From Acidimicrobiia bacterium (GTDB lineage Bacteria > Actinomycetota > Acidimicrobiia > Spongiisociales > UBA5794): a DNA stretch of 64,000 nucleotides. Under the pieces are notes generated by a model. The model had not been told where the DNA came from and did no database searches. It worked only from the letters and a program-made list of their open reading frames with translations. Both the position numbers and the translations under genes were made by a program. Within the stretch, counting starts at the first letter, position 1, and every line of letters starts with the position of its first letter. The stretch is taken from contig JASJDZ010000043.1 of NCBI GenBank assembly GCA_030065575.1, positions 2,564 through 66,563 of the forward strand, in the 5' to 3' direction. Shown piece after piece: positions 4,710-23,642 of this stretch.

Positions 4710-4725
4710 AGTTGTCTAGACAAGT
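4710..4725. promoter_or_regulatory. Candidate HutC-type operator (dre-like): AGTTGTCTAGACAAGT.
   Basis: It is a near-perfect 16-bp palindrome with a GTCTAGAC core. It sits in the divergent intergenic region between the gntR-ROK operon and the SIS gene. It resembles the DasR/NagR dre consensus ACTGGTCTAGACCACT. Confidence 0.5.
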
Positions 4726-5554: not shown

Positions 5555-5628
5555 CTCCAACTCGTCGTCCTATGTGTACGTGTAGGAGACGAGGTAGCGC
5601 GTTTCAATCGCCACGGGGCTTTGTTCTT

Positions 5629-5646
5629 GACACATACAAAAGTGTC
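5629..5646. promoter_or_regulatory. Inverted repeat GACACATACAAAAGTGTC upstream of the ROK regulator gene.
   Basis: It has 5-bp perfect arms (GACAC/GTGTC) around an 8-bp A-rich spacer, about 40 nt upstream of the ATG at 5686. It overlaps a TTGACA -35-like hexamer. Confidence 0.35.
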
Positions 5647-5685
5647 TGCTCAAATGGCGGAAGCATCGGGAGGAGAACGAGGCGA

Positions 5686-6852: not shown

Positions 6853-6956
6853 GGATTCAACAGAAGTGGGTAGCGGCCTATCGGCATTCCTGCCATGCGC
6901 CGCACACCCTCAACAAGGGAAAGAACCGTTATCGGAAATAGAAGGAGGAGGAGAGC

Positions 6957-7997
6957 TTGTCGAAGAAGACAAAGTTTCCAGCTTGGCGGCTGCTGACAGT
7001 GCTCGCAGTGTTCGCGTTGATCGCTGCTGCGTGTGGCGGAGATGACGAGGGTGGCGATGACACGTTCACCCTGGGCGTATCCAACACACTCGTCGGCAAC
7101 GCGTGGCGCGAGCAGATGATTTGCGCCATCAAGGCAGAGGCGCTGGCCCGGGGCAACGTCGATGAGGTGGTTCTGCAGAATCGCAATACCGACGTAGCGG
7201 GCCAGATCGCCGACATCCAGACTCTGATCTCTCAGGGTGTGGATGCCATCATCATCAACCCGGCCGACCGTTCGGCCCTGGACGACGTAATTGCTGAGGC
7301 CGACGCGCAGGGAATCCCGGTCATATCCGTGGACGCCCCCGTGACCGCCCCCGAGGCGTACTTCGTGTCGAACAACCAGGTCGAGTACGGCGAGGTTGGT
7401 GCCCGGTGGCTCTTTGAGACGCTGGGTGGTGAAGGCAAGGTCGCGTACATGCGCGGTCTAGATGGTCACCCGGCAGATACCGATCGTGACACCGGCTGGG
7501 TCGCGGCGCTTGCCGAGTATCCCGGCATCGAGGTTGTCTACGAGAACTGGACCGGATGGGATCCCAGCGTTGGCGCCCAGCAGGCCCTGGAGATTCTCAC
7601 CACCATGGAGGTGGATGGAATCTGGACCTCCGGCATCGACTACACCGTGGTTGAGCAGTTCGCCGTTGCCGGTGTTGATTACGTACCGATCGTTGGTGCG
7701 GACAACAACGCCTTCATCGAGCAGCTGATGAACACCAGCGGGCTAGTTGGCGCCGGCGTGTCGAACCCGCCGTCTATTGGGGGAGTCGGTGCGGCTATTG
7801 CCCTTGACATCCTCGAAGGCAAGGACGTGAGCCAGGAGACGCTCCTGACTCCCGTCGTGCTCGACAGTATGGATGAGCTCGAAGGTGTGTACATCCCCGA
7901 CCTGACAGCAGGTTGGTCTTCGTACATGGTCATCGAGCCGTACGTCACATACTCCGACGCCCAGGCAGTCATCGACTGCAAGGGCCCTGGGGAGTAA
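6957..7997 (+). CDS. Sugar ABC transporter substrate-binding lipoprotein (PBP type I, ribose/xylose class).
   Basis: It has a TTG start after GGAGGAGGAG, a lipoprotein signal (LIAAACGG), and the periplasmic-binding fold typical of RbsB/XylF. Confidence 0.8.
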
Positions 7998-8060
7998 TGC
8001 AATGCGTGCCGGACTCCTCTCCAGAGGGGTCCGGCACCTCCACCTATTGAGGACCTGAAT

Positions 8061-9569
8061 GTGAGCGAGGAGTTCCTGCTCGCGGCGCGCGGCGTCGCCA
8101 AGCAATACGGACCGGTTGTGGCATTGCGCTCTGCGAACCTGTCCGTCGTACCGGGGGAGATCCATGCTCTGCTGGGCGCCAACGGTGCCGGCAAGAGCAC
8201 GCTCGTCAAGATCCTGTCATCTGTCATCCGAGCCGATGCCGGCGCGATCGATGTCCACGGCGTCGAAGCCGCTCTCCAGAAGCCCACAGATTCCCTCGCG
8301 GCTGGGATCGCCACCGTTTTTCAAGATCCAGCCCTGATCCGCGACCTCACGCTGGAACAGAACCTCCGCATCTCCCGTCTGACCAAGAGCGACGTCCTGC
8401 CCTGGCTGGAGAGAATGAACCTCGGCCACATCGACTTCGACTTGCAGGTTGCCGACGTCCCTCTCGCGGTGCTCCGCCTCCTCGACCTCGCCCGAGCACT
8501 TGCCCACGATCCGCAGCTACTCATGCTCGACGAGATCACCGCCGCATTGACTACCGACCAAGCCGACTACGTCTTTGAATTGATGCAGGAGTGGAAGGAT
8601 CGCGGCCGGTCCGTCCTCTTTATCTCCCACCGCCTGGGGGAGGTGCTTGCCTCCTGCGACCGGGCCACGATTCTGCGCAACGGCGCCGATGTTGCCCACC
8701 TCGATCTAGCCGGCGTCGACGAAGGCCAGCTCGTAACGGCAATGCTGGGCGAGGAGCTGGTCGAAGAGCTAGAAGAGGCCGGCACAACTCAGGAAACCGG
8801 GCCAGCCGTTGCCGCCGGTGCTCGGGACCGGAAAGAGCGACCCGTTGTTCTCGAGTTGAAGGATGTCCACTTGCGGGACAAGGTGAACGGTATCTCCTTC
8901 GAGCTCCGTCAGGGCGAGATCCTCGGCCTGACCGCACTGGAGGGTCAGGGTCAGAAGGAGTTGTTCCAGGCCCTGAGCGGCGATCACCGACCCAGTGCCG
9001 GGGAACTGCTGGTGAAGGGAGAGCCCCTGAGGGCGCGATCCCCATACGATGCCATCCGACGGGGAGTGGTCCTCGTACCGGCAGACCGCCAGCAGGCATT
9101 GCTACCGCAACGATCGGTCCGGGAGAACCTGGCCACACCTCTCTACAACAGTGCCGGGGGCTGGCTGGCTCTGGCCGGCGACGAGAAAGAGCGCGTCGAC
9201 GGCGCCGTTGCCCGGCTGGACATCGATGTCCGCGCCGGAAGCCAGGCACAGCGACTCTCGGGCGGGAATCAGCAGAAGGTGACGATCGGCCGCTGGCTTG
9301 CCGCCGGATTCGACACCCTGCTTTGTTTCGACCCCACCAGGGGCATTGACATCCAGACCAAGGCCCAGATTTACGATCTGCTCCGGGAGGTGGCCGCCGA
9401 CGGGGCCTCGGTCATCCTCTACACGAGTGAGTTGCGGGAGATCCAACTCGTGTGCGATCGGGTACTTGTGATGTACGCCGGCCGCATTGTCAACGAACAG
9501 GATGCTGCAACCGCAACCGAGGAATCCATGCTGAGCGCTGCCCACGGTCTGAAAGAGGTCCCGGCATGA
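8061..9569 (+). CDS. Sugar ABC transporter ATP-binding protein with duplicated ATPase domains.
   Basis: It has two Walker A motifs (GANGAGKST, and a degenerate one in the second half) and an LSGGNQQKV signature. At about 500 aa it resembles RbsA/XylG/MglA. Confidence 0.9.
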   Translation: MSEEFLLAARGVAKQYGPVVALRSANLSVVPGEIHALLGANGAGKSTLVKILSSVIRADAGAIDVHGVEAALQKPTDSLAAGIATVFQDPALIRDLTLEQNLRISRLTKSDVLPWLERMNLGHIDFDLQVADVPLAVLRLLDLARALAHDPQLLMLDEITAALTTDQADYVFELMQEWKDRGRSVLFISHRLGEVLASCDRATILRNGADVAHLDLAGVDEGQLVTAMLGEELVEELEEAGTTQETGPAVAAGARDRKERPVVLELKDVHLRDKVNGISFELRQGEILGLTALEGQGQKELFQALSGDHRPSAGELLVKGEPLRARSPYDAIRRGVVLVPADRQQALLPQRSVRENLATPLYNSAGGWLALAGDEKERVDGAVARLDIDVRAGSQAQRLSGGNQQKVTIGRWLAAGFDTLLCFDPTRGIDIQTKAQIYDLLREVAADGASVILYTSELREIQLVCDRVLVMYAGRIVNEQDAATATEESMLSAAHGLKEVPA

Positions 9570-10579
9570 CCTCCACTTCCCCGGATGCGCTGGTTGCCGG
9601 TACGCAGGCGCCCTGGCGTCGCTGGCTACGCCGTCATGGTTGGACATTGGGTGTCTGGCTCCTCCTGTTCCTGCTGATCGCCTATTACGCCACTCTCATT
9701 CCACGGTTCGGCGCCTTCCAGGTTGCGTCGATCGTCAACAACGCAACACCGCTCGTCTTCCTCGCCGTTGCCCAGGCCGTGATCGTTATCGCCGGGGGCA
9801 TCGATCTCGGCGTGGGCGGCATGCTTGTCCTGTCCAGCGTCACCGCAGCGCGGTTAATGGAGGGCCAACCCTTCGGCGTCACCATTGTTCTCGCTGTACT
9901 GATCCTTCTTGCCGCCGCGGTCATCAACTCCGGCGTTGGCTGGATCATCACCCGATCCAATGTGCCCGACATCGTTATCACTCTCGGATCTCTGTATGTG
10001 TTCCAGGGCTTGGCGCTCGCGGTCCTTCCCAACCCGGGGGGAGGGACGAGCGAGGGATTCCGCTGGCTGTTCACCGGATCTGACACCGGAATCGGCACCA
10101 ACCCGTGGCCGGCCGCTGTCATGATGACGGTAGCCGTGGCCGCGGTCGCCTGGTGGATGGGCAAGACCAGGAGTGGTCTGTCTCTGTACGCTGCTGGGAG
10201 CGATAGGACTGCCGCTTTCCTCTCAGGGATCAACGCCGATCGCGTCAAGATCATGGCCTATGCGGTCGGTGGCGCCTTCGCTGCCCTGGCCGGGTTGGCC
10301 AACACAGCAATCGCGGGTCGCGGCAACGCAACGACGGTGGGCGGCAATCTCACGCTCAACTCGGTCGCAGCGATCGTGCTCGGTGGTGTCGCCCTCACCG
10401 GCGGAATTGGGTCTGCCATTGCAGTAGTGCCCGCCGGGATCATCCTGTTCTTCCTCAATCCGATCCTCACCGCAATGGGAGTCGACCCGAGTAGTGCCCA
10501 GGTGATCCAGGGCGTTCTGATCGTGTTTGTGATGGCGGCGACGGGGATAATCGAATGGCGAAGGAGGAGGCAGGCATGA
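9566..10579 (+). CDS. Sugar ABC transporter permease.
   Basis: It is a polytopic membrane protein of the RbsC/AraH type. Its ATG overlaps the ATPase stop as ATGA. Confidence 0.8.
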   Translation: MTSTSPDALVAGTQAPWRRWLRRHGWTLGVWLLLFLLIAYYATLIPRFGAFQVASIVNNATPLVFLAVAQAVIVIAGGIDLGVGGMLVLSSVTAARLMEGQPFGVTIVLAVLILLAAAVINSGVGWIITRSNVPDIVITLGSLYVFQGLALAVLPNPGGGTSEGFRWLFTGSDTGIGTNPWPAAVMMTVAVAAVAWWMGKTRSGLSLYAAGSDRTAAFLSGINADRVKIMAYAVGGAFAALAGLANTAIAGRGNATTVGGNLTLNSVAAIVLGGVALTGGIGSAIAVVPAGIILFFLNPILTAMGVDPSSAQVIQGVLIVFVMAATGIIEWRRRRQA

Positions 10580-11577
10580 GCACGGATCTCATCCCTCTCT
10601 CCGAGGAAGAAGCCGCCGTCTCTGGTCGACAGAAGGCCGCCCGGTACCTGGTCAACCATCCCCACCTCGTACTCATCGGCGTCCTTGTCTTGCTGATCAT
10701 CCTGACCGGGCTCATCGAACCGAATTACCTGAGCATCAACGGCCTCCGCAATTCGGCGCTGTTTGCCGTTCCGATCGGCATACTCGCTGCGGGTCAGACG
10801 ATCCTGATGTTGACGGGCGGTATCGACCTGTCGGCGGCGATGATCGCCACCGGGGCCGCCTACATTGCCGCAAACCAATCGCCACAGGGTGCGGTGATCG
10901 CCATCCTGGGTGGTCTGCTCGTTGGTTTCCTGGCCGGTGCCGCCAACGGCATCGGGGTCGGGATCTTCCAGGTCAACCCTCTGATCATGACCCTCGCCAT
11001 GTCGGGCATCCTGCTGGGCCTATTCACTTCGTGGGCGCAGACAATCTTCTCGGGGTCAACCCGCATGGGTGACTTCATCAGGACGTTGGGAGGCGGATCG
11101 TTCTTCGGTCGGGCCATACCTTGGGCAGTGGTCGTCTGGGCGGTGCTTTCGGTGTTTGTTGTCTACATGCTGCGCCGGAGCGGTTTCGGACGGAACCTCT
11201 ATGCCCTCGGTGACAACCCTGCCGTCGCCCGCCTGTCCGGCACCCGGGCTTGGCAGGTCCTGATCATTGTGTACACGATGGCCGGCGTCTTCGCTGCCAT
11301 AGCCGGTCTCTTGCTCGGCGGTCGGGTCGGAGCCGTCGATCTCCAACTGGCCGGGGTGTTCCTACTTCCGTCGGTGGCGGCGGCGGTCATCGGCGGAACA
11401 TCCATCTTCGGCGGAATCGGCACCTACACCGGCACCATCCTCGGCGCCCTGATTCTCGGCGTGCTCCAATCGCTTCTCACGTTCCTCGGGGCAGGCCAGG
11501 CCGTGCAACAAATGCTGTACGGCAGCATCGTCATCGGTTTGTCCTGGCTCTACACCAGGATTTCCGCAGCACAGTAA
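10576..11577 (+). CDS. Sugar ABC transporter permease (second subunit).
   Basis: It is a polytopic membrane protein. Its ATG sits after AGGAGGAGG and overlaps the upstream stop as ATGA. Confidence 0.8.
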   Translation: MSTDLIPLSEEEAAVSGRQKAARYLVNHPHLVLIGVLVLLIILTGLIEPNYLSINGLRNSALFAVPIGILAAGQTILMLTGGIDLSAAMIATGAAYIAANQSPQGAVIAILGGLLVGFLAGAANGIGVGIFQVNPLIMTLAMSGILLGLFTSWAQTIFSGSTRMGDFIRTLGGGSFFGRAIPWAVVVWAVLSVFVVYMLRRSGFGRNLYALGDNPAVARLSGTRAWQVLIIVYTMAGVFAAIAGLLLGGRVGAVDLQLAGVFLLPSVAAAVIGGTSIFGGIGTYTGTILGALILGVLQSLLTFLGAGQAVQQMLYGSIVIGLSWLYTRISAAQ

Positions 11578-11581
11578 GGAG

Positions 11582-12745
11582 ATGGTCGACATGCATCTGA
11601 GCGAGATCAAAGCAGGTGTGGTCGGCGTCGGTTTCATTGGGGTTGCCCACGTTGAAGCGCTGCGTCGACTCGGAGTCGATGTGGTCGGTGTCGTGGGCTC
11701 AAGCCCGGAAAGAGCCAGGGCGAAGGCGGAGGCGGCGAATCTGCCGCGCGTCTACGACGGCATAGAGGCAATGGCCGCCGATCCCGAGATCGATGTCATC
11801 CACATCGCCAGTCCCAACTACGCACATGCCGGGCAAGCGCGGATAGTCCTCGACGCCGGCAAGCATGTTGTTTGTGAGAAGCCGCTGGCGCTGACGTCAG
11901 AGGAGACGGCGGATCTCGTGGCCAGGGCAGCAACCGCCGGGCTCGTCAACGCCGTTTGCTTCAACATCCGCTTCTATCCGAATTGCCATCAGGCCAGATC
12001 CCTCGTGGCATCCGGCGACATCGGCACTCCCCGGTTGATCAGCGGCAGCTACCTGCAGGACTGGTTGCTGCTCGAGACCGACTGGAACTGGCGCCTCGAG
12101 TCGGAGAAGGCTGGGGCGCTGCGTGCTGTTGCCGACATTGGCTCACACTGGCTCGACCTGGCCCGGTTCATCACCGGGGCGCATGTGACGGAAGTGATGG
12201 CTGATCTTCACACCTTCGTCAAGACTCGCAAGCATCCGGCCGGGCCCGTCGAGACCTTCGCCGTCACCGGTGACGATGAGGAACTGATCGAGGAGGCGAT
12301 GGAGTCCGACGACAGCGCCGGGGTCTTGCTGCGCTTTGACAACGGAGCGCGAGGTGTCGTCACGATCTCGCAAGTATCGGCTGGACGTAAGAACTCAGTC
12401 TCGATCGAAGTCGACGGCAGCGAATCCGCACTGTCCTGGTTCTCGGAGAACCCTGATCATCTCTGGATCGGCCACCGGGGCCGACCGAACGAGATCCTGC
12501 AGCGAGACCCTTCCCTGGCGAGCCCGGACGCCGCTCGTACCATCGGCTACCCGGGGGGACACGTCGAGGGCTATCCCGATACGTTCCGGGCGCTCTTCGC
12601 CGAAGTCTACGCCGATGTTGCCGCCGGGGGACCGGCCGTCGATCCTCGCTATCCGACATTCGCCGACGGCCACGATGCGCTCCTGGTGACTGAGGCAGTC
12701 GCCCGGAGCTCACAAGAACAACGTTGGATCCATATCGAAAGATGA
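11582..12745 (+). CDS. Gfo/Idh/MocA-family NAD(P)-dependent oxidoreductase. The start may instead be at 11591.
   Basis: It has an N-terminal Rossmann motif (GVVGVGFIGVAHVEAL) and a consensus EKP motif (VVCEKPLA). Confidence 0.85.
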   Translation: MVDMHLSEIKAGVVGVGFIGVAHVEALRRLGVDVVGVVGSSPERARAKAEAANLPRVYDGIEAMAADPEIDVIHIASPNYAHAGQARIVLDAGKHVVCEKPLALTSEETADLVARAATAGLVNAVCFNIRFYPNCHQARSLVASGDIGTPRLISGSYLQDWLLLETDWNWRLESEKAGALRAVADIGSHWLDLARFITGAHVTEVMADLHTFVKTRKHPAGPVETFAVTGDDEELIEEAMESDDSAGVLLRFDNGARGVVTISQVSAGRKNSVSIEVDGSESALSWFSENPDHLWIGHRGRPNEILQRDPSLASPDAARTIGYPGGHVEGYPDTFRALFAEVYADVAAGGPAVDPRYPTFADGHDALLVTEAVARSSQEQRWIHIER

Positions 12746-12755
12746 GGAGGAAAGC

Positions 12756-13670
12756 ATGAAGCTCGGTTTGCTCACCGCACCCTTCCCGGAGACGCCTCTC
12801 GACGAGGTCGCCGACTGGACCGCTGGCAATGGGTTCACCGCAATCGAGATCGCCTGCTGGCCGGCCACCAGCGGTGATACCCGTCGCTACGCCGGTACCA
12901 GCCATATCGATGTCGACGAGATCTCCGATACCGAGGCGTCAGACATAATGGGCGGGATGAAAGACCGGGGCCTGGAAGTGTCGGGTCTCGGCTACTACCC
13001 CAACCCGCTCCACCCCGATCAGGCGCACGCACGGATGGTTATTGACCATCTGAAGAAGGTGATCGTGGCCGCAGGCAAGATGGGTGTGCCCGTAGTCAAT
13101 ACCTTCGTTGGTGCCGACCGTGCACTGACTCAGGATGAGAACTGGGAAAAGGCGACCCGGGTGTGGCCGGAAATCGTGAATTGCGCCGCTGACAACGGTG
13201 TCAAGATCGCCATTGAGAACTGCCCGATGATCTTCTCCAAGGACGAGTGGCCGTCTGGTCACAACGTCGCCTACAACCCAAAGACATGGCGAAGGATGTT
13301 CGAGGAGTTCGGCGAGACGGTCGGCCTCAACTTCGACCCATCGCACCTGATCTGGCTGATGATCGACATTGAGCAAGCCATCCTGGAGTTCGGGGAACGG
13401 TTCTACTTCTTCCAGGCGAAAGACGTCATGATCGACTACGAAGGTCTCTACGAGAACGGAAGCCTGTCCTCAGGCATGGGCTGGCAGGTTCCGCGTCTTC
13501 CCGGGCTCGGCGACGTTGATTGGGCGATCGTGTTCCGTTCGCTCTACCGGGTCGGCTACGACGGGCCGATCATCATTGAACATGAGGATCGTGACTTCGA
13601 GCAGACAGACGACCTGGTCAAGCGCGGGTTCCTGCTCGCCCGCGACGTACTGGCGCCATACGTCCACTAG
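12756..13670 (+). CDS. Sugar phosphate isomerase/epimerase (xylose-isomerase-like TIM barrel).
   Basis: It has a TIM-barrel fold with metal-ligand His/Glu/Asp positions, similar to IolE/LgdB/DgpB-type enzymes. Confidence 0.85.
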   Translation: MKLGLLTAPFPETPLDEVADWTAGNGFTAIEIACWPATSGDTRRYAGTSHIDVDEISDTEASDIMGGMKDRGLEVSGLGYYPNPLHPDQAHARMVIDHLKKVIVAAGKMGVPVVNTFVGADRALTQDENWEKATRVWPEIVNCAADNGVKIAIENCPMIFSKDEWPSGHNVAYNPKTWRRMFEEFGETVGLNFDPSHLIWLMIDIEQAILEFGERFYFFQAKDVMIDYEGLYENGSLSSGMGWQVPRLPGLGDVDWAIVFRSLYRVGYDGPIIIEHEDRDFEQTDDLVKRGFLLARDVLAPYVH

Positions 13671-13687
13671 AGCCTAGAACTACAGCT

Positions 13688-15022
13688 TTGAGGAACTACC
13701 AGGAGCACGGCCGATATGACGTGGTGGTCGTCGGATCCGGTTCTGCCGGGTCGACGGCCGCCATTGCATCAGCGCGCGCAGGCGCAAGGACGTTACTGAT
13801 CGAGAAACTTCCGTTCCTCGGTGGCAATTCGACTGCGGTACTGGACACGTTCTACGGCTTCTACACACCGGGGGAGAGGGCCCGCAAGGTCGTGGCCGGG
13901 ATCGGTGACGATGTTGTCGCCGGACTCAAGGCGCTCGGGGAGGTGGTGGTGCGCCCCAACACCTATGGCGCCGGTACGGGGGTGACCTACCTGGCAGAGC
14001 ACTTGAAGGTTGTTTGGGAAGGCCTCGTCCTGACCGCAGGTGTGGATGTTCTCCTCCACGCCTTCGTTCAGGACGCAGGCGGAACCGACGGGCGCGTCAA
14101 CGAGCTCGTTGTTGCCACCAAGGCGGGCCTGATGCGTGTCGAGGCGACCACGGTCGTAGACGCTTCAGGCGATGCCGATGTCTGTCACCACGCAGGGCTC
14201 GGATACGAGCTCGCAGGATCGATCGCACCGGCACAGACGCTGACAACCACCTTCCGCATGGCCAACGTCAACATGGATAGGCGGAGGACGATCACCAAGG
14301 ACGACCTCCACGCCGTAATGGCTGAGGCCGCTGAGTCAGGCGACTACGACCTGCCGCGCCGGGAAGGCAGCGACCACATCACCCCGGTCGACGGGATGAT
14401 TGCCACCGTGATGACGCGAATCAATCACGTCGTGAAGGAAGATGACGGTACCGTGCGCAACGCTACCGACCCGAACCTCCTCACTGCTGCGGAGATCGAA
14501 GGCAGACGGCAAGCCCTCGAGTACGCAAGATTCCTGATCGATCGGGTACCCGGCTACGAGAACGCGGCAATCGTTGCCCTGTCCAGCCAGATCGGTCTCC
14601 GCGAGACGCGCCGCGTCTACGGCGACTACCGGCTGTCCCGAGCAGACGTTCTCGCCGCTCGGCAATTTGACGATCAGATCGGTCTGTGCGGAGCACCCAT
14701 CGAGGATCACCACGGTGGCGCCGGGACAGGCACGACCTGGGAGTACCTCCCCGAAGGCGAAGCAGTGGGCATCCCACTGCGAACCCTGATCGCGCGAGAT
14801 GGGCAGAACGTAATGATTGCGGGTCGTTGCTTCTCAGCCGAGCACGACGCACAGGCTTCTGTGCGCTCGATGGCTCAATGCATGGCAATGGGACAGGCGG
14901 CGGGAGTCGTCGCCGCGCTTGCCGCCGGGAGCGGCGGTGAGGTGAGATCGGTTCCAACTGCTGACGCTCAGACCGCACTTCGCAATGCCGGTGCGGTGCT
15001 GAGCATCGGGGAGGCCGGCTAG
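13688..15022 (+). CDS. FAD-dependent oxidoreductase.
   Basis: It has a TTG start and an N-terminal dinucleotide-binding motif (DVVVVGSGSAGSTAAIASA...LLIEK). At about 444 aa it resembles the FAD_oxidored / HI0933-like class. Confidence 0.75.
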   Translation: MRNYQEHGRYDVVVVGSGSAGSTAAIASARAGARTLLIEKLPFLGGNSTAVLDTFYGFYTPGERARKVVAGIGDDVVAGLKALGEVVVRPNTYGAGTGVTYLAEHLKVVWEGLVLTAGVDVLLHAFVQDAGGTDGRVNELVVATKAGLMRVEATTVVDASGDADVCHHAGLGYELAGSIAPAQTLTTTFRMANVNMDRRRTITKDDLHAVMAEAAESGDYDLPRREGSDHITPVDGMIATVMTRINHVVKEDDGTVRNATDPNLLTAAEIEGRRQALEYARFLIDRVPGYENAAIVALSSQIGLRETRRVYGDYRLSRADVLAARQFDDQIGLCGAPIEDHHGGAGTGTTWEYLPEGEAVGIPLRTLIARDGQNVMIAGRCFSAEHDAQASVRSMAQCMAMGQAAGVVAALAAGSGGEVRSVPTADAQTALRNAGAVLSIGEAG

Positions 15023-15988
15023 ATGGCGTTCGTGCGTACGGTTACCGGGGACGTGCCACCACACGAACTCGGTGTTACCTATGCACATGAGCACGTCGTG
15101 CTCGATGCGCCGATTGCGCAAGACCGCTTTCCTCACGCGTTTCTCGATGACGACGACGCAGCCTTATCAGAACTACGCGCTTGCGCCGAGGTAGGTGTGA
15201 AGGCGATGGCCGATGCGCTTCCGTGTGCGATCGGCCGGCACCCGGAACGCCTTGCAGAAATCAGCCGCGCCGTCGGCGTTCACATCATCGCCAGCACCGG
15301 CGCTCACACCAGCAAGTGGTATCCAGGGCTCTCCTGGGCCAACGAGCTACCGGCACCACAACTGACCGAGCTGTTTGTCGCCGATATCGAAATTGGGATC
15401 GACCGGTTCGACTACTGCGGGCCGGTAATCGAGCGGACACCCCATCGCGCAGGCCTCATCAAAGTTGGCACCCTTCAGGACGACCCCAACGAGCGTGACC
15501 GGCGAACCTTCGCCGCAGCGGCCGCGACCCACCGCCGCACCGGCGCACCGATCATTACTCACTGCGAGGAGGGAAGGGGTGGCCGGGAGCAGATTGAGCT
15601 CTTCGCTGAGTACGGCATCAGCCCAGATTGTGTAGTGCTTTCCCATACGGACAAGGTCCAAGACGTTGGCTACCACCTGGACCTGGTGGGGGCGGGGGCC
15701 TTCCTCGAGTTTGATCAAGCACTCCGCCATCCGATAGGTCCGACCAATCCGACCGTGCGTATCGTCACCGAGTTGGTGTCGTCTGGCTTCGGGTCCCAGG
15801 TGATGCTTGGCACCGACGGTGCTCGTCGCTCTCTGTTGACGGCATACGGGGGAGCGCCGGGATTGGCGGCGCTGGCAACCGGCGTGACGGAAGCACTCAA
15901 GAACGAGGGGGTCTCGGATGAGTCTCTCAATACCATCTTCGTCGATAACCCCGCTCGATTCTTCAGTTTCCGCGAGGTGGCAGAATGA
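15023..15988 (+). CDS. Phosphotriesterase-family (PTE/PHP) metal-dependent hydrolase, possibly a lactonase.
   Basis: It has the HxH metal motif (THEHVV) at the N-terminus of an amidohydrolase TIM barrel, and is about 321 aa. Confidence 0.8.
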   Translation: MAFVRTVTGDVPPHELGVTYAHEHVVLDAPIAQDRFPHAFLDDDDAALSELRACAEVGVKAMADALPCAIGRHPERLAEISRAVGVHIIASTGAHTSKWYPGLSWANELPAPQLTELFVADIEIGIDRFDYCGPVIERTPHRAGLIKVGTLQDDPNERDRRTFAAAAATHRRTGAPIITHCEEGRGGREQIELFAEYGISPDCVVLSHTDKVQDVGYHLDLVGAGAFLEFDQALRHPIGPTNPTVRIVTELVSSGFGSQVMLGTDGARRSLLTAYGGAPGLAALATGVTEALKNEGVSDESLNTIFVDNPARFFSFREVAE

Positions 15989-17037
15989 CGGATGTCGGCC
16001 GGCCATACCCGGACAGGGCTATCGCCGTCGGGAAACTCGCTCCCGGCATCGGCAATCTTGGGCTTCGCACTCAGGCTGTCAGGCGACCGGCGGAGGACGA
16101 AGCGGTGCTCGAGATCATTGCGACCGGCATCTGCGGTACCGATCTTCACATCGCAGACGACGAGTTCCCCTCCGAGCCGCCGGTGACGATGGGTCACGAG
16201 ATCACCGGAGAGGTTGCTGGGATCGGATCCGGCGTCGACTCCTCATGGTTGGGTGCGAGGGTTGTCTGCGAGACCTACTTCGCGACCTGCGGGGCGTGCA
16301 TCTACTGCCGCAACGGGAAGCCGAACCTATGTGCTGGGCGACGATCAATCGGCTCCCGTGTCGACGGCGGCTTTAGCCGCTGGCTGACCATCCCGGTTCG
16401 TAACCTATGGCGAGTGCCCGACCATGTCGGCAGGCACGGCGCAGCGCTAGCGGAACCACTCGCCTGTGTAGCGCGATGCATCTTCGATCCTCCGGTCATC
16501 AATCCCGGAGATAGCGTCCTTGTCGTCGGTCCCGGCGCTATGGGCCAGCTGACCGCCCAGTGCGCTCGGGCTGCGGGAGGAGTAGTCACGCTCGTGGGTC
16601 TGCAGCGTGACTCGGCGCGCCTCGAAGTGGCAGCGTCGATGGGTTTCAATGTGGTCGAGGCCGATGGCGACGTGACCGATCTCGGCGAGTTCGATGTCGT
16701 TGCCGAAGCATCCGGTAGCGAGGGTGGCGCTCGCACCGCACTCGACTCTGTCCGCAAGGGTGGGGCGTACATCCAGGTAGGCATCTTCGGCAAGCCAATC
16801 CAGGCGATGCTGGATGCATTCGTGTACGGGGAGCTGATTGTGCGGTCGGCGAACGCCAGCACCCCGAGTTCCTGGCGGAGAGCGATGCTGCTCCTCGATT
16901 CCGGCCTGATCGACCTTGATCGGCTGGTGAGCGACGTGTACGCACTCGAGGATTGGGAACAGGCATTCGCCGCCACCAGGGCTGGACAAGGGCTCAAAAT
17001 CGTTATCGATCCTCGTCTCCCGGCTCGCAACACCTGA
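15985..17037 (+). CDS. Zinc-dependent medium-chain alcohol/polyol dehydrogenase.
   Basis: It has a catalytic Zn motif (GHEITGEV), a structural Zn motif (CGACIYCRNGKPNLC) and a GPGAMG NAD motif. Its start overlaps the upstream stop. Confidence 0.85.
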   Translation: MTDVGRPYPDRAIAVGKLAPGIGNLGLRTQAVRRPAEDEAVLEIIATGICGTDLHIADDEFPSEPPVTMGHEITGEVAGIGSGVDSSWLGARVVCETYFATCGACIYCRNGKPNLCAGRRSIGSRVDGGFSRWLTIPVRNLWRVPDHVGRHGAALAEPLACVARCIFDPPVINPGDSVLVVGPGAMGQLTAQCARAAGGVVTLVGLQRDSARLEVAASMGFNVVEADGDVTDLGEFDVVAEASGSEGGARTALDSVRKGGAYIQVGIFGKPIQAMLDAFVYGELIVRSANASTPSSWRRAMLLLDSGLIDLDRLVSDVYALEDWEQAFAATRAGQGLKIVIDPRLPARNT

Positions 17038-17065
17038 CTCGACAATTGGCCGAAAGGAAGTTCGC

Positions 17066-17878
17066 ATGACTATCGGAGCAACACCCGAAGCAAGTTGGAG
17101 GACTGCCCTCATCGGCCCCAGCGCAGTCGTGACCGGCGTATCGAACGGCATCGGTAGATCGATCGCTGTTGCCCTGGCCGAGGCAGGGGCAAACGTGGCT
17201 GGGTGTTACGGGTCGGATCACCAAGGTGCGCAGCGGGTTCGCAACCAGATTGCCGCCACGGGCAGGGACTCTTACATCATCCAGGCTGACACGGGAGATC
17301 CCGCCACGGCTGAGACTCTGGCCACCGAAGCCGTTGATCGGTGGGGATCCCTCGACATCTGGGTCAACAATGCCGCTCGGCTCATGGTCAAGCCCGTTGT
17401 GGAAACCACCGACGAGGATTGGCACGGCCTGCTGGCGGCCAATCTTCACGGCTTCTTCTACGGCTCGCGGGCTGCAGCAACGATCATGTACGGCCAGAAG
17501 CGTGGCCGCATCATCAACATCACATCTGCGGCAGACGTTCTGGTAGTAGAGAATCTCGGTACCTACATCGCAGCCAAGGGCGGGATCATCGGGCTTACGA
17601 AGACCCTGGCTCTAGAAGCCGCGCGGCATCAGGTCACCGTGAACGCCGTATCCCCGGGGGCCATCGATACCCCTCTGAATCTGAAGGCGTACACACCAGA
17701 GGTGCGTCGTACCTACGAAGCACGGATCCCGCTCGGACGGATCGGCGCGGAGGATGAGATCGCCGACGTGGTCGCCTTCGTTGCGTCGAACGCCTCCCGC
17801 TACCTCACCGGCCAAGAGATCGTTGTTGACGGCGGACTGGTGATCAACGGCACTGTCGGTCACGCCCTGGACGAATGA
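17066..17878 (+). CDS. SDR-family oxidoreductase.
   Basis: It has a TGVSNGIGRS cofactor motif, an NNAA motif and a YIAAK catalytic dyad. Confidence 0.85.
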   Translation: MTIGATPEASWRTALIGPSAVVTGVSNGIGRSIAVALAEAGANVAGCYGSDHQGAQRVRNQIAATGRDSYIIQADTGDPATAETLATEAVDRWGSLDIWVNNAARLMVKPVVETTDEDWHGLLAANLHGFFYGSRAAATIMYGQKRGRIINITSAADVLVVENLGTYIAAKGGIIGLTKTLALEAARHQVTVNAVSPGAIDTPLNLKAYTPEVRRTYEARIPLGRIGAEDEIADVVAFVASNASRYLTGQEIVVDGGLVINGTVGHALDE

Positions 17879-18726
17879 TGGGCCGGGTCAATGCAATCGA
17901 GGTGCTGGTCGAAGGGCTCGACCACCCCGAGGGTGTCGCCTACGACCACCACTCGGGGATCCTGTACGCAGGGGGCGAAGCGGGCCAGATCTACGCAATT
18001 GATCCCGAGGAACGTACCGTCCGAGAGATCGCAAGAACTCCCGGATTCGTGCTCGGCCTGGCTGTCGATGGTCGCGGCCGTTTGGTCATCTGCGACTCGG
18101 TTGACGCAGCCATCTGGGTGCTCGAGGACGGCAGGCTACGGCGGCTCCTCGACCGCGCCGGAGATCGCAAGCTAATGCTGCCCAACTACCCGGCATTCGG
18201 CCCGGACGGAACCCTCTACTTCTCCGATTCGGGCAAATGGAAGGAGAACAACGGTGCGATGATCCGGGTGGCTCCCGACGGGGAGGCGACTGTGCTCGAC
18301 GCAACCCTCAATCGGTTCACCAACGGTTGTGCAGTGACCCCAGACGGTTCTGAACTCTGGGTGGTCCAGTCCTTGGGCCCGGTGGCCAAGATCAGCCTGA
18401 CCGGCGAGGGAACCGCGGAGGTTGCTGTCGAGCTCCCGGGCACGATCCCCGACGGAGTCGCATTCACCAAAGACGGGGGAGCGGTTCTCACTTGCTACCG
18501 CCCGGATCGTATCTACTACCTGGACCGGGATGGCAGGTTAGAGATCCTGGCTGAGGATCCGGAGGGAACCCTGATGGCTGCCCCGACCAACGTCTGCTTC
18601 CTGGGTGGCGATCGCACGACCTTGGTCTCGGCCAACCTGGGACGATGGCACTTGACGCTGCTGGAGACCGATCTGACCGGCGTCGTTCCCCATGCCCCGG
18701 AGACTTGGGCGGCTGACGTGTTATGA
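17875..18726 (+). CDS. SMP-30/gluconolactonase/LRE-family lactonase.
   Basis: It has six-bladed propeller signatures (EGVAYD, GRLVICD, PNYPAFGPDGTLYFSD, PDGVAF). Its start overlaps the upstream stop as ATGA. Confidence 0.8.
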   Translation: MMGRVNAIEVLVEGLDHPEGVAYDHHSGILYAGGEAGQIYAIDPEERTVREIARTPGFVLGLAVDGRGRLVICDSVDAAIWVLEDGRLRRLLDRAGDRKLMLPNYPAFGPDGTLYFSDSGKWKENNGAMIRVAPDGEATVLDATLNRFTNGCAVTPDGSELWVVQSLGPVAKISLTGEGTAEVAVELPGTIPDGVAFTKDGGAVLTCYRPDRIYYLDRDGRLEILAEDPEGTLMAAPTNVCFLGGDRTTLVSANLGRWHLTLLETDLTGVVPHAPETWAADVL

Positions 18727-19712
18727 GCATTCAGGAAGAGAACGCAAGCGGGCGGCTACCCAACCTCGATTCGGCACTCTGGATTCGAGAGTCCGTCATT
18801 GCGTCGGGTGCTGCGGAGGGGACACGTGCGATCGACGTCCGACCGTGGGGAGGCATTGGCTGCCGCGTCTATCCCGATCGCGGGCTCGACATCGGGCAAG
18901 CCTGGTTCGGCGACACTCCCTTGGCCTGGACGTCGCAGGTGGGGGAGTCAGGGCCGTTACAGAATCTGGAGGGCATGTCCTGGGGCGAGGCCTTTGGTGG
19001 GGGACTGCTGGTGACTTGCGGGATGCGCAACGTTGGCATGCCGTCCGAAGGTCACGGGCTACACGGGACGTACTCGCATCTGCCGGCATCAGATGTACGG
19101 ACTGGAGCAGTCGTCGGTGACCAGGATGCTGCGGTGGTGATCACCGGCGTCGTGCACGATGAGGAGCCGCCGGCACCTCTCCAACTGCAGCGAACCATAC
19201 GAATCGCAGCCGGTCGAGGCCGTATCGATGTCGAGGATCTCATCACCAACACGGGCGACGAACCGGCCGAGGCTCCTCTGCTGTATCACTGCAACTTTGG
19301 CTATCCGCTGTGGTCGCCTCCGGCCCATTTGCGCATTCCCGCGGTGGCGGCAACCCACGCCCGCGATACTGAATCGGAGGTAGCGCTGGACACGTGGCAC
19401 ATCCCTCCTTCGCTCGAAGTCGCCCCCGAGCGCGTTCTCGAGCACGTAATTTCTGCGGGCACCACTCAGGGCCAAGCAATGATCACGAACTCCGAGTTGG
19501 GCATCGCGGTCGAGGTCGGCTGGGACCGGGCTGAGTTACCTCGCCTCAATCAATGGCTGGACCCCAACCCCGGAATGGCTGTGCTCGGTATCGAACCCGC
19601 CAACTGCTCAACGCGAGGGCGCAGCTTCGATCGTGCCTCCGGGGCCTTGCCCTGGCTCCAGCCCGGTGAAGCAAGAATCACCCATCTGTGGATCGAGGCT
19701 CGGGGGGTATGA
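18723..19712 (+). CDS. Aldose-1-epimerase-like (DUF4432 / galactose-mutarotase-fold) protein.
   Basis: It has a mutarotase-like beta-sandwich with an HCNFGYP motif, and is translationally coupled to the lactonase gene. Confidence 0.6.
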   Translation: MSIQEENASGRLPNLDSALWIRESVIASGAAEGTRAIDVRPWGGIGCRVYPDRGLDIGQAWFGDTPLAWTSQVGESGPLQNLEGMSWGEAFGGGLLVTCGMRNVGMPSEGHGLHGTYSHLPASDVRTGAVVGDQDAAVVITGVVHDEEPPAPLQLQRTIRIAAGRGRIDVEDLITNTGDEPAEAPLLYHCNFGYPLWSPPAHLRIPAVAATHARDTESEVALDTWHIPPSLEVAPERVLEHVISAGTTQGQAMITNSELGIAVEVGWDRAELPRLNQWLDPNPGMAVLGIEPANCSTRGRSFDRASGALPWLQPGEARITHLWIEARGV

Positions 19713-19738: not shown

Positions 19739-20440
19739 CTAGCTGAGTAGAGCCGCAGCGGGCTCATCCGCATACACGATTGTGTTCCCGTGCTGGCGCA
19801 GATACGACGCAGGCACCTCCGGGCCAATCGGCCCGGACACCGCCCGTTCCAGGATCTCGGCTTTGTGCCGACCTGAGACCAGCAGCCAGATCTCTTCCGC
19901 GGCAAGCAGCGTCCCCATCCCAAGCGTTATCCCCCAGGTTGGTCGAGCTGTTGCCCCGTAACGGGCTGCGTTCTGCTGGGTCGACGGGTCCAACTCAACA
20001 ACACGTGTTCGCGAGTCAGACCTCGAGCCCGGCTCGTTCATGCCGATATGCCCATTGCCGCCCAGCCCGACAACGGCCAGGTCGAGCCCGCCATCGGCGA
20101 TCACATCTTCAAAGCGTTCGCACTCCTCTTGCAGTGAGGCTGCGGTCACATCGAAGGTGTACAAGGCATCGGGTGGGGTAGGAAGTCGCTGCAAGAGCGC
20201 CCTATCGAGCATCTCGTCGCAGCGTCCGAGATCACCGACCGGGAGAAGGAACTCATCGAGCAGGAACACCTCTGTGCCTTCCAGAGACCCGCCAGAAGCC
20301 GTGAACTCGGCATAGACGGGCTCGGGTGTGCTCCCAGTAGCGAGACACACGCGCAACCCATTTCGCAGGGAGACGAAGCGAACGAGTCGGGCCCCGACAG
20401 CCGGGGCCCACTCGTCAGCCGCAAAGATCTCGAGTTTCAC
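19739..20440 (-). CDS. nagB: Glucosamine-6-phosphate deaminase.
   Basis: It has the NagB/Pgl signature [16 protein letters not shown] and an N-terminal LATGSTP motif. The GTG start overlaps the upstream gene's stop as GTGA. Confidence 0.8.
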
Positions 20441-21633
20441 CCGTCGGTGACGATATCGAAGATCGACCCTGTGTCCTTGTCGCTGAGGATCAGCTTCTTC
20501 CGTCCGTCCGGCAGGACCTCTTCCTTGACCACGGCGTGACCATCGTGGAACGAGTTGGTCTTGGCAATCCGCTCGGTTGCGCCCCCGCGCCACTCGACGT
20601 TGACGGGTTCCCACTGCCTGGTCTCGGCGGAGCGGTAGGCGGCGTCCATGATCGCGTTGACCACGTAACCGTCGTAGAAGGTCTCCATAGGCTCCGTGCC
20701 GTTCTCGATGGCATCGAACATATCGGTGAACATGTCGACATAGCCGAGCTCGGAGACTTCGTCGCCAACCGGGAATAGCCAGCCCTCAGTGGATTCGAGC
20801 TTCTCCGCGACGTATCCCTCTCCGCCACCGGATGAGTACATCTCATACCCGGTCCGCAGGAAGTGATTGAGCCAGATCGTGCCCTCGGTCCCGGCGACCT
20901 CGTCACGCAGGTCCATACCACCACGGAACGACCAGCTCACCTCGAATTGGCCAATCGCACCCGATTCGAAACGGATGAGCACTACGGCGTTGTCCTCCGC
21001 CTTGATGGGATGAACGAGCGTGTCGGCCCACGCCATGACATCGAGCGGCCGATTGCCCTTGCCGACGAAGTTGCGAATGATCTCAATGCAATGGCAGCCC
21101 AGGTCGACAATGGCGCCACCCCCGGCCTTGTCCTTGTCCCAGAACCATGCGCTGTGAGGCCCGGGATGAGTCTCTCGGGAGCGCACCCAGGTGACATCGC
21201 CGATGGCGCCTCCGTTGACCGCTGCTATCGCCTTGAGCGTCTTGGGTGTGTAGCACAGATCCTCTAGGTAACCGGCGAAGATCCCGGCTTGCTCGACCCG
21301 GTCGAGGATTCGCTTGGCTTCTTCGCCGGAGCGGGCCAACGGCTTCGTGCATAGGACGGGCTTGCCCGCAGCGGCGATGAGATCGATCGCTTCCTCGTGA
21401 AGGAAGTTGGGGAGAGCGACAACGACCACATCGACCGCAGGGTCGTTGATCGCGTCCTCGATACTCGTTGTGTGGCGAGGGATGCCCCATCGCTCGGCAA
21501 ATGCCTGACCACGCTCCTCGGTTCTCGAGTAGACAACCCCGACTCGATCCCGGCCGCGCTGGCCGTGGAGAGTCATCGTGTAGAAGTCTCCGATCAGCCC
21601 GGTCCCGAGCATGGCAATCGTGCGTCCTTCCAT
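20437..21633 (-). CDS. Gfo/Idh/MocA-family oxidoreductase.
   Basis: It has a Rossmann motif ([13 protein letters not shown]) and a CTKPLA (EKP-like) motif. It is the first gene of a two-gene operon with nagB. Confidence 0.85.
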
Positions 21634-21683
21634 GACTGTTCCTCCTGGTACTGGATGGACGGCGCCTCACGACGTGATGGCGA

Positions 21684-21695
21684 TTGTATATACAA
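21684..21695. promoter_or_regulatory. Perfect palindrome TTGTATATACAA upstream of the Gfo-nagB operon.
   Basis: It is a 12-bp perfect palindrome with the same TTGT...ACAA arms as the 4710 site, about 50 nt upstream of the start at 21633. Confidence 0.4.
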
Positions 21696-21702
21696 GTTAG
21701 CG

Positions 21703-22883: not shown

Positions 22884-23075
22884 GGTTCACCTCCAGAAGG
22901 CGATCCGACTCATTAGAGAGGTTCGTTGCCGGAAGTCAGGACGGATGCTTCCAACCGGTTATGCGCATACGCGCATGTTTCCTGTCTAGTCCCGTTCCGC
23001 AAGTCCATCCGTCCCTTGTCGATCGAGCCTTGGGGATAGATGATGGAGGCAGGTCCCAACACCAGGGAGTGCCGA

Positions 23076-23642
23076 ATGATCGAACTGCGGATTCACGGCC
23101 GCGGAGGACAAGGCGCCGTCGTTGCTTCCAAGACACTGGCGCAGGCAGCGTTTCTGGCAGGGAGATACGTTCAGAGTTACCCGGACTACGGGGTAGAACG
23201 TCGCGGCGCGCCCGTTGTGGCGTTCGCCCGCATCGCCGAGCCCGGTGATGATGTGTTCGTTCGCCAGGACATCAAGGAACCACACCATCTGCTGGTGCTC
23301 GACCCGACCTTGTTGGATTCGGGCAATCCCATCGCCGGACTGCGCGACGGAGGCTGGGTGGTGGTCAACAGCCCTGATCCACCCCAGTCTCTGGGGATCG
23401 TCACACGGTTCCGCGTTGCCACAGTGGATGCGACCCGCATCGCGATGAACCACGGCCTCGGCACTGCCGCTCAGCCCGTTGTCAATACCGCCATTCTCGG
23501 CGCTTTCGTGCGGGTTACGGAGATAGTCGAGATGGACGACTTGCTGCGAGCGATCACCTACGAGGTCCCCACAATGGAGGAGGAGAACTGCCAGGCGGCT
23601 CGTGACGCCTTCGATTCGGTGCGTACGGAGGTGGCGGTATGA
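23076..23642 (+). CDS. porG: 2-oxoacid:ferredoxin oxidoreductase gamma subunit.
   Basis: It has the PorG fold (IELRIHGRGGQGAVVASKTLAQAA). The ATG at 23076 follows a GGGAG RBS, and the stop overlaps the next ATG as ATGA. Confidence 0.85.
   Translation: MIELRIHGRGGQGAVVASKTLAQAAFLAGRYVQSYPDYGVERRGAPVVAFARIAEPGDDVFVRQDIKEPHHLLVLDPTLLDSGNPIAGLRDGGWVVVNSPDPPQSLGIVTRFRVATVDATRIAMNHGLGTAAQPVVNTAILGAFVRVTEIVEMDDLLRAITYEVPTMEEENCQAARDAFDSVRTEVAV

Follow-up and report, generated by a model that had tools for sequence, protein, structure and literature searches.

A conserved Gfo-TIM-barrel pair at the heart of a composite, importer-linked gene run in an Acidimicrobiia bacterium

We analysed a gene run at positions 11582-19712 of a 64,000-nucleotide stretch of DNA (the window, 64 kb) from an Acidimicrobiia bacterium (GCA_030065575.1, contig JASJDZ010000043.1, positions 2,564 to 66,563, forward strand). 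The window also matches JARPNZ010000246, a contig of the Acidimicrobiia metagenome-assembled genome GCA_029979685.1. An initial annotation had described it as nine enzyme genes behind a sugar importer, an island combining an oxidise-then-eliminate module with a double-lactonase module. In the window, 49 open reading frames (ORFs) were annotated, and the proteins of the cluster were compared with Pfam, NCBIfam equivalog models and PDB sequences. Eight ORFs rather than nine were found, filling the span completely, and every Pfam domain call held. All on the forward strand, they encode an NAD-dependent dehydrogenase of the Gfo/Idh/MocA family (Gfo, 11582-12745, by Pfam); a metal-dependent xylose-isomerase-like TIM barrel (TIM, 12756-13670; AP_endonuc_2, 117 bits); a PF12831 FAD-dependent oxidoreductase (FAD, 13688-15022; FAD_oxidored, 335 bits over its full length); a PTE-family amidohydrolase, probably a lactonase for an anionic sugar lactone (PTE, 15023-15988; 157 bits); a Zn-dependent alcohol/polyol dehydrogenase (ZnADH, 15985-17037; ADH_N, ADH_zinc_N); an SDR, a probable aldose 1-dehydrogenase (17066-17878; adh_short_C2, 210 bits), with its partner, an SMP-30/gluconolactonase-like beta-propeller (17875-18726; SGL, 69.5 bits); and an aldose-1-epimerase-like DUF4432 protein (18723-19712; 243 bits).

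The tight co-directional spacing described for these genes was borne out, with intergenic distances of -4 to +50 bp and four overlaps of 1-4 bp, but the span had been drawn too narrowly. The co-directional run holds 15 genes from 4754 to 19712, of which the flagged span is the distal half, and the locus should also take in a divergent pair (3031-4658) and a convergent pair (19739-21633) that flank it. The run starts with a SIS_2/UPF0309 protein, a distant NagS/MurQ relative (SIS, 4754-5554; SIS_2, 131 bits), followed by a ROK protein with an N-terminal winged helix-turn-helix (HTH), probably a regulator (ROK1; ROK, 200 bits, plus HTH_24). ROK1 ends at 6852 and starts at 5551 or 5686: the NCBI gene call gives 388 residues from 5686, and in a related locus (L083) the protein has 431 residues and its gene overlaps SIS. 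The largest intergenic gap is 104 bp with the first start and 131 bp with the second. Directly upstream of the flagged genes, as initially described, lies the importer, a CUT2 ATP-binding cassette (ABC) system with a solute-binding protein (SBP, 6957-7997; Peripla_BP_4, 184 bits), a double ATPase (8061-9569) and two BPD_transp_2 permeases (9566-10579 and 10576-11577), the last three overlapping their neighbours by 4 bp. The best PDB match of the SBP was 4pe6, a putative ABC transporter protein (E 4e-31), and proteins that bind ribose, xylitol and threitol came next.

The divergent pair, on the reverse strand, consists of a ROK-family sugar kinase without HTH (ROK2, 3031-3942; ROK, 180 bits) and, overlapping it by 4 bp, a HutC-subfamily GntR regulator (3939-4658). 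Next to it, an SDR on the forward strand (SDRup, 2231-3034; adh_short_C2, 174 bits) is a possible peripheral member. The convergent pair, also on the reverse strand, encodes a predicted NagB-like hexosamine-6-phosphate deaminase/isomerase (19739-20440; Glucosamine_iso), only 26 bp from DUF4432, and a second Gfo/Idh/MocA dehydrogenase (Gfo2, 20437-21633, by Pfam). Base composition is uniform (per-gene GC 0.60-0.64; GC at third codon positions, GC3, 0.69-0.78), so the idea of a horizontally acquired island found no support. Consensus scans detected no promoter-like sites in the run, terminator-like sites were no commoner there than after shuffling, and Rfam and tRNA scans of the window gave no matches.

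For the neighbourhood comparison, a TIM alignment was scanned against GTDB representatives (one genome per species). A TIM relative turned up in at least 597 genomes, of which the 80 top-ranking loci were retained; these belong to Acidimicrobiia, Chloroflexota, Nitriliruptorales, Thermoleophilia including Gaiellaceae, and Rhizobiaceae. Window proteins were mapped onto the loci by tblastn, with precomputed gene calls for long contigs of close relatives; about 90 related loci were compared overall, and 40 GTDB-representative loci with a TIM at least 59% identical formed a core set. Gfo adjoins TIM in 60 of the 80 species-representative loci. The Gfo-TIM pair is the conserved heart of the locus. 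Within the core set, Gfo was present in 35 loci, ABC genes in about 30, deoC (deoxyribose-phosphate aldolase, DERA) in 29, SIS in 26, Gfo2 in 22, GntR in 19, ROK2 in 18, PTE in 13, FAD in 10 and NagB-like, paired with Gfo2, in 8. SDRup occurred in 7 loci, and homologues 40-53% identical to it adjoin FAD, PTE or Gfo2 in Chloroflexota loci. ZnADH and SDR were found in 3 core loci each, and SMP-30 and DUF4432 in a single one each, so that the proposed nine-gene set is not a conserved unit. The widespread core comprises the CUT2 importer, Gfo, TIM, the NagS/MurQ-like SIS protein, two ROK proteins, the HutC-type GntR, Gfo2 and the NagB-like protein; Gfo2 is 69-85% identical across three phylum-level groups.

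The remaining flagged genes fall into two parts. FAD is followed by PTE in every mapped locus that has FAD, in one case (L084) with one short ORF between them; the two genes abut in the window (0 bp), and their spacing in relatives ranges from -4 to +52 bp. The usual layout in Acidimicrobiia is gntR / SIS-ROK-SBP-ATPase-permease-permease-Gfo-TIM-FAD-PTE, without the four genes that follow PTE in the window (L004, L084, L165, L166). In three of these loci (L004, L084, L166) the next genes after PTE are a convergent nagB-like-gfo2 or aldehyde-dehydrogenase-gfo2 pair, and in L165 two unrelated genes separate PTE from the convergent pair. The insert ZnADH-SDR-SMP30-DUF4432 between PTE and nagB-like is complete only in the window, L002 and L083, the last adding a MetE-like Meth_synt_2 gene behind DUF4432. 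The distribution from locus to locus therefore makes the flagged island a composite, in which the Gfo-TIM pair is universal, the FAD-PTE couple optional and the four-gene module rare. The double-lactonase module of the initial annotation likewise separates into two couples of differing distribution, FAD-PTE and SDR-SMP30, each of which we infer to join a dehydrogenase to a lactonase.

This distribution raises the question of whether the four genes at 15985-19712 belong to the pathway at all. They could be an independent non-phosphorylative aldose-oxidation cassette for another sugar, made up of a mutarotase, an aldose 1-dehydrogenase, a lactonase and an aldonate dehydrogenase and inserted only physically. 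Such an enzyme set matches the logic of L-fucose/L-galactose oxidative routes; the cassette is missing from most close relatives, where PTE abuts nagB-like or the aldehyde dehydrogenase (L004, L084, L166), and it is less conserved, ZnADH being 61-62% and DUF4432 55-56% identical between the window and L002/L083 against 88% for TIM. However, ZnADH overlaps PTE by 4 bp, which leaves no room for a promoter of its own, and the dehydratase and aldolase that would complete an oxidative route are absent. Moreover, the four families recur beside Gfo-TIM and ABC genes in Gaiellaceae of the Thermoleophilia (L062, L079) and in an Actinomycetes metagenome-assembled genome (MAG; L057), where the sole gntR of the locus sits within the four-family cassette; in the Gaiellaceae and Actinomycetes MAG loci SDR and SMP30 also remain neighbours, either abutting or sharing up to 10 bp. 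Because of this recurrence the insert is probably linked in function to the core and not a random passenger, and we regard independence of these four genes, though a possibility to be taken seriously, as doubtful.

The MetE-like gene of L083 (16167-17195) has stand-alone counterparts in L016 (5043-6083), L062 (5516-6544) and L057 (3110-4204), placed beside PTE or behind DUF4432 in Acidimicrobiia, Chloroflexota and Gaiellaceae. Since it scores 188 bits against a cut-off of 406 for methionine synthase, the protein is unlikely to be MetE; it might conceivably act as an O-demethylase.

The compared loci also bear on how the locus may be controlled. An operator-like palindrome, AGTTGTCTAGACAAGT, lies at 4710-4725 in the divergent gntR/SIS intergenic region (0.1 such palindromes expected by chance in the window), and a second, ATTGTATATACAAGT, at 21683-21698, about 50 bp upstream of gfo2, so that a GT-N-TA-N-AC palindrome stands before the main operon and again before the gfo2-nagB-like pair. 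This is reportedly the signature of HutC-subfamily operators, and the regulator at 3939-4658 bears both marks of that subfamily, a GntR HTH (74 bits) and a UTRA effector domain (98 bits). In 1.41 Mb of related loci the 12-mer core TTGTCTAGACAA occurred in 6 exact copies, with none in 30 shuffles, and with one mismatch in 12 copies against a shuffle mean of 0.9. The palindrome TTGT[C/A]TA[G/T]ACAA was present in L004, L012, L032, L035, L036, L056, L058, L083 and L087, which span three phylum-level groups. All listed sites but one lie between cluster genes (gntR/SIS, ROK/Gfo or 5' of gfo2), and those upstream of gfo2 in L004 and L056 are equivalent to ATTGTATATACAAGT. Of the evidence available, this shared palindrome argues best for a single regulon comprising the long operon and the gfo2-nagB-like pair, with the palindrome as candidate operator, and control appears to lie with the HutC-type GntR and a ROK protein.

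We then asked what the Gfo-TIM pair resembles. The initial annotation had named an IolG/IolE pair in an ordinary iol operon as a finding that would overturn its reading. This was not what we found: against the IolG model (TIGR04380, cut-off 355 bits) Gfo scored 120 and Gfo2 129 bits, and TIM scored 32 bits against the 290 of IolE (TIGR04379), over residues 179-278 only, all other curated models giving E > 0.005. A variant cyclitol (inositol or inosamine) pathway could nevertheless be imagined, with Gfo as inositol dehydrogenase, TIM acting on an inosose in the manner of IolE, IolO or IolI, ZnADH as an IolM-like inosose dehydrogenase, and the lactonase/hydrolase genes replacing IolD/IolB. Myo-inositol catabolism (IolG/IolE, and IolG/IolM/IolN/IolO of T. 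maritima) does share the Gfo-TIM pair, the CUT2 importer and a ROK regulator with the locus, CUT2 SBPs and ROK regulators being known in the iol systems of B. subtilis and T. maritima. IolE is also the only curated model that TIM touches at E < 1e-5, ZnADH matches IolM weakly (134 bits), and scyllo-inositol dehydrogenase 5ya8 was among the PDB matches of Gfo and Gfo2. A kinase passing the IolC (5-dehydro-2-deoxygluconokinase) cut-off, at 371 vs 300 bits, occurs in two Thermoleophilia and one Actinomycetes MAG: directly after TIM in L058 (10924-11829), nearby in L050 (1440-2366) and just past ZnADH in L057 (11889-12824). Against this, the scores lie far under the cut-offs of 355, 290 and 450 bits; no IolD, IolB or IolJ homologue was present among the 49 annotated window ORFs, and a tblastn search of the window for IolC picked up nothing but a PfkB at 47.6 kb, 29% identical. 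The order in L058, Gfo-TIM-IolC-ZnADH-HAD-DUF4432, is unlike an ordinary iol operon, the conserved partners (ROK kinase, SIS, NagB-like, DeoC) are sugar-phosphate and not cyclitol enzymes, and the TIM homologues of Firmicutes sit in glycoside and not inositol clusters. A cyclitol pathway is on this evidence quite unlikely.

The nearest curated relative of Gfo points elsewhere. Its best model was levoglucosan dehydrogenase (LGDH; NF052479), at 174 vs 650 bits, with Gfo2 at 120 vs 650, and its PDB matches were 3v5n, 4h3v and 4gqa, of unknown function, and LGDH 6a3f (E 6e-40); the closest structure to Gfo2 was 6nor (E 6e-43). In a levoglucosan-type route to an ordinary hexose, Gfo would be LgdA, TIM an LgdB2-like enzyme, Gfo2 LgdC and ROK2 a glucokinase, with the remaining genes accessory, and the substrate could be levoglucosan, mannosan, galactosan or a 1,6-anhydro-hexosamine. 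As in the levoglucosan pathway (LgdA/B1/B2/C; B. smithii, Paenarthrobacter), the importer leads directly into Gfo and a xylose-isomerase-like TIM barrel, the SBP-ATPase-permease-permease-Gfo-TIM order resembling the B. smithii lgd locus; a second Gfo and ROK proteins, regulators of that family being common there, lie nearby, and the proposed logic of oxidation, elimination, hydration and reduction is the same. TIM also resembles the hydratase AtHYD, and the NagB-like and MurQ/NagS-like SIS proteins would suit an anhydro-amino-sugar. Yet because Gfo reaches only 174 of 650 bits it is not an LgdA orthologue. No LgdB1-like second TIM barrel was found in the window, and a NagA-type deacetylase is absent; SIS, NagB-like, FAD, PTE and the DeoC of relatives are none of them used by the lgd pathway, and in a route to glucose DeoC (29 of the 40 relatives) and the conserved flavoprotein would be roleless. 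We therefore hold such a route to be unlikely, if less so than the cyclitol one.

A missing second barrel need not exclude elimination. TIM was the sole AP_endonuc_2 protein found in the window, and tblastn of the window with the Enterococcus raffinosus C-glycoside deglycosidase (CGD) alpha and beta subunits detected neither subunit; Pfam gave no PF19906 hit among the eight flagged ORFs. However, LgdB2 unites eliminase and hydratase activity in one protein, and LgdB1 is the only TIM enzyme in 126 of 265 lgdA neighbourhoods, so a single TIM barrel can, by analogy, be enough. By Foldseek, the AlphaFold model of TIM (pLDDT 77.7) matched SCO6571 best (2zds, E 5e-16) and AtHYD second (8ro4, E 2e-15, TM 0.68-0.69, 20% identity), the identities to the two being 20-24%. 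AtHYD, a functional analogue of LgdB2, is a 2-hydroxy-3-keto-glucal hydratase whose step follows that of the O-glycoside beta-eliminase AtOGE and precedes that of a Gfo reductase (PMC10628242). The A. tumefaciens 3-keto-glycoside pathway to which it belongs (GlycDH, AtOGE, AtHYD, Gfo reductase) has, like our locus, a flavoprotein, a TIM barrel and a Gfo enzyme. Unlike that pathway, the locus has a PF12831 flavoprotein rather than a GMC one with a TAT-exported partner, its importer is of the CUT2 type, and no AtOGE-like eliminase was found.

Cultured bacteria provided further context. A full-length TIM homologue, 40% identical, is carried by an E. raffinosus megaplasmid (NZ_CP081847.1; L167, 6741-13865) in the order MFS - Gfo - TIM-barrel CGD-alpha-like - PF19906 CGD beta - Gfo - TIM homologue - ROK glucokinase-like. 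Niallia sp. Man26 has TIM homologue - second TIM - Gfo - ROK glucokinase, and TIM homologues in such keto-glycoside clusters of cultured Firmicutes are 38-40% identical. A plasmid of Streptomyces sp. NBC_00564 carries ROK regulator / Gfo-TIM-Gfo-TIM2-ABC, and Chloroflexota ZRK35 has GntR-TIM2-Gfo-deoC-CUT2 ABC adjoining Gfo-TIM-ROK. The contexts in cultured bacteria therefore place the TIM family, by analogy, where an eliminated keto-glycal would be hydrated, reduced and phosphorylated. Together with the fold match to AtHYD, they agree with the oxidise-then-eliminate chemistry initially proposed. The E. raffinosus genes look like a complete C-glycoside utilisation cluster in a human-gut Enterococcus, which makes this a cultured carrier of the TIM family.

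A further possible reading is that the locus itself deglycosylates O- or C-glycosides in the manner of DgpA/DgpBC or CarA/CarBC. The combination of Gfo, TIM and FAD would fit, as would the TIM homologue within the E. raffinosus cluster, where Gfo and a ROK glucokinase accompany it right downstream of CGD alpha/beta. There, however, the homologue is encoded by a gene of its own, downstream of the lyase; TIM matches the sugar-salvage end of such clusters, the window lacks both CGD subunits, and the importer is of the monosaccharide class. CarA and GlycDH belong to the GMC oxidoreductase family, and the Pfam hits of the PF12831 flavoprotein include no GMC oxidoreductase domain. Deglycosylation is thus very improbable here. 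E. coli YcjQRS, which interconverts D-gulosides and D-glucosides through a 3-keto intermediate, also has a Zn-ADH, a TIM barrel and a Gfo enzyme behind an ABC importer. Orthology was rejected: in BLASTP, YcjR did not match TIM, YcjS was 26% identical to Gfo (E 6e-17) and YcjQ 27% identical to ZnADH over half its length. By sequence the resemblance is analogous and not orthologous.

The partners conserved outside the flagged span (SIS, ROK, Gfo2, NagB-like and, in relatives, DeoC) point to sugar-phosphate chemistry rather than to the aldonate end point proposed at first. Among them, ROK2 scored 160 vs 260 bits on the ROK glucokinase subfamily and has the DxGxT and CxCGxxGC motifs. NagB-like reached 122 of 237 bits on the nagB model, matched B. 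subtilis NagB (2bkv, E 1e-28) and retains the monomeric-NagB motifs GxTP, LDE and NGHIGxNEPG. SIS matched PRK02947 (258 bits, cut-off 135) and, by phmmer, SCO4393 NagS (9eol, E 1e-30). NagS orthologues are at least 58% identical within Streptomycetaceae, and homologues 26-36% identical are inactive on GlcNAc-6P (PMC12680351); we rejected a NagS (GlcNAc-6P dehydratase) function for SIS on account of this distant relation. The set thus recalls NagS/MurQ/NagB systems under a DasR/NagR-type HutC regulator in its UPF0309 SIS protein, its NagB-like protein with NagB motifs, its ROK kinase, its HutC regulator and its dre-like palindrome. It differs from them in having no NagA, in a NagB-like protein under the nagB cut-off and in a SIS protein at the distance, about 30% identity, of inactive NagS homologues. 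A galactosamine-to-glucosamine epimerisation route was also considered. The deoC gene of the related loci passes its equivalog cut-off (214 vs 117 bits) and often lies directly behind TIM (L003, L005, L006, L009-L031, L035, L036, L056, L170); tblastn found none in the window.

Of the lactonase candidates, PTE scored 153 vs 630 bits on phospho-furanose lactonase (NF045706) and aligned to Lmo2620 (3pnz, E 5e-42) with all metal ligands kept (HxH, Lys, His, His, Asp). The cationic phosphate site of Lmo2620 is said to consist of K242, K244, R275 and Y278. Two of these stay cationic in PTE (K242 to R235, R275 to R268) and two are replaced (K244 to P237, Y278 to L271). Both residues that stay cationic are arginines. 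An anionic sugar lactone would make a plausible substrate. In the insert, ZnADH was nearest to threonine 3-dehydrogenase (174 vs 380 bits) and IolM (134 vs 450), and SDR to the glucose 1-dehydrogenase subfamily (196 vs 215) and L-rhamnose 1-dehydrogenase (175 vs 400). DUF4432 matched 3ty1, a 'hypothetical aldose 1-epimerase' (E 1e-19), and homologues 30-38% identical lie directly behind CUT2 ABC genes in many metagenomes, in keeping with a mutarotase role. A metagenome scan gave only three close orthologues, the rest being distant gut and termite homologues that bear on no more than a general association of DUF4432 with CUT2 transporters. One further homologue, 32% identical (L157, contig ERZ1673752.224, about 10001-10927), lies beside CUT2 ABC genes and is flanked on both sides by three deoC-like tblastn matches, 34-46% identical, at approximate positions.

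The flavoprotein is 74-76% identical across Acidimicrobiia, and its listed homologues are 73-93% identical. A PDB sequence search matched only a 40-60-residue FAD-binding motif. Assignment by structure failed: the AlphaFold model (pLDDT 57.8) gave Foldseek hits with TM of at most 0.38, which are meaningless, and for that reason we assign the protein no function.

The flagged run is best read as the distal half of a regulon that imports and converts a neutral, monosaccharide-sized compound. Slightly better than even, in our judgement, is the prospect that it does so by a route of oxidation, elimination and/or hydration, reduction and phosphorylation with two dehydrogenase-lactonase side branches, the catalytic steps of which we infer from the enzyme families. 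The CUT2 system would import the compound, and the NAD-dependent Gfo enzyme, or else the flavoprotein, would oxidise a ring hydroxyl to give a keto-sugar. On this intermediate the metal-dependent TIM would perform beta-elimination and/or hydration (compare LgdB2 and AtHYD), after which Gfo2 would reduce the ketone and ROK2 phosphorylate the product. SIS and NagB-like, with DERA in most relatives, would then process a sugar 6-phosphate. In an oxidative side branch, FAD-PTE and SDR-SMP30 would each make an aldonate, which ZnADH would oxidise, DUF4432 serving as mutarotase.

Several observations weigh against this reading. No enzyme of the cluster reaches a curated equivalog cut-off among the NCBIfam models, and every functional assignment is at superfamily level. 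The 20% identity of TIM to AtHYD is low, and ketose 3-epimerases match its model barely less well (TM 0.65-0.68), with UlaE and IolI also close. Because these TM-scores barely differ from that of AtHYD, TIM may instead carry out epimerase or isomerase chemistry. A plain glucose product would leave SIS, NagB-like and DeoC superfluous. DeoC, which ranks third in frequency among the partners seen in relatives, is absent here and finds no explanation in the scheme, and the scheme leaves the role of the PF12831 flavoprotein, very conserved and without an informative solved relative, unaccounted for. Co-transcription and regulation, finally, are deduced from spacing and motif position only.

DeoC and the IolC-type kinase suggested a different idea, in which NAD-dependent oxidation and beta-elimination open a cyclic ether or non-hydrolysable sugar analogue to yield a 2-deoxy-aldose that is consumed in two ways. 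The substrate might be a 1,5-anhydroalditol such as 1,5-anhydro-D-glucitol (a deoxyhexose isomer), a 2-deoxy-glycoside or a nucleoside. Ring opening would leave a deoxy-keto sugar, to be reduced to the 2-deoxy-aldose. In most relatives this would pass to the ROK kinase and DERA; in the window a mutarotase, a 1-dehydrogenase, a lactonase and a 5-dehydrogenase would turn it into 5-dehydro-2-deoxygluconate, the substrate of IolC. If true, the idea would explain deoC in 29 of 40 loci, the IolC-passing kinase in three and every gene of the insert, and it would amount to a catabolic route of which we found no description, common among Acidimicrobiia, Chloroflexota and Thermoleophilia of soil and fresh water. 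The idea is built on gene co-occurrence and chemical reasoning only, literature searches on 2-deoxyglucose with DeoC and on anhydroglucitol found no such route, and we consider it improbable, at much the level of the cyclitol pathway or just below. The window also encodes an adenosine deaminase (39086-40114, reverse strand) and a cytidine/dCMP-deaminase-like protein (53754-54560, forward strand), which touch only the speculation about deoxynucleoside sugars.

Other window genes may be noted. Just downstream of the sugar locus, four genes at 23040-27418 encode a 2-oxoacid:ferredoxin oxidoreductase (POR gamma, GltD-like Fer4_20/Pyr_redox_2, POR_N/PFOR_II and TPP_enzyme_C), followed at 27497-29356 by a 619-residue protein with an M23 peptidase domain and LVIVD repeats. 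A PfkB sugar kinase (47578-48516) and a GH94 phosphorylase of the cellobiose/chitobiose phosphorylase family (56323-58791), both on the reverse strand, have no established link to the locus.

The locus belongs to the recently recognised oxidise-then-eliminate sugar pathways, of which those for levoglucosan, 3-keto-glycosides and C-glycosides are examples. The initial annotation had not recognised the gene combination as any characterised pathway, and our searches agree: no curated family matches the exact combination, and literature searches on DUF4432, UPF0309, PF12831 and combinations of family names found no description of the cluster. What appears new is the joining of an oxidise-eliminate module with sugar-phosphate enzymes and an orphan flavoprotein, to which relatives add DERA. 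The species-level genome count shows the Gfo-TIM core to be abundant, and matches to TIM and to the flavoprotein among metagenome proteins run into the thousands, the best 120 listed for each being 73-100% identical. Nearly all carriers of the core are uncultured members of the Acidimicrobiia, Chloroflexota and Thermoleophilia that come from soil, sediment and water. Because an operator motif is defined here, the regulon is testable, and the locus is a good target for pathway discovery, if not a surprise in kind. Naming its substrate would assign a function to PF12831 members, to UPF0309 proteins outside NagS, to DUF4432 and to SCO6571-like TIM barrels, and would reveal a carbon source of major uncultured lineages.

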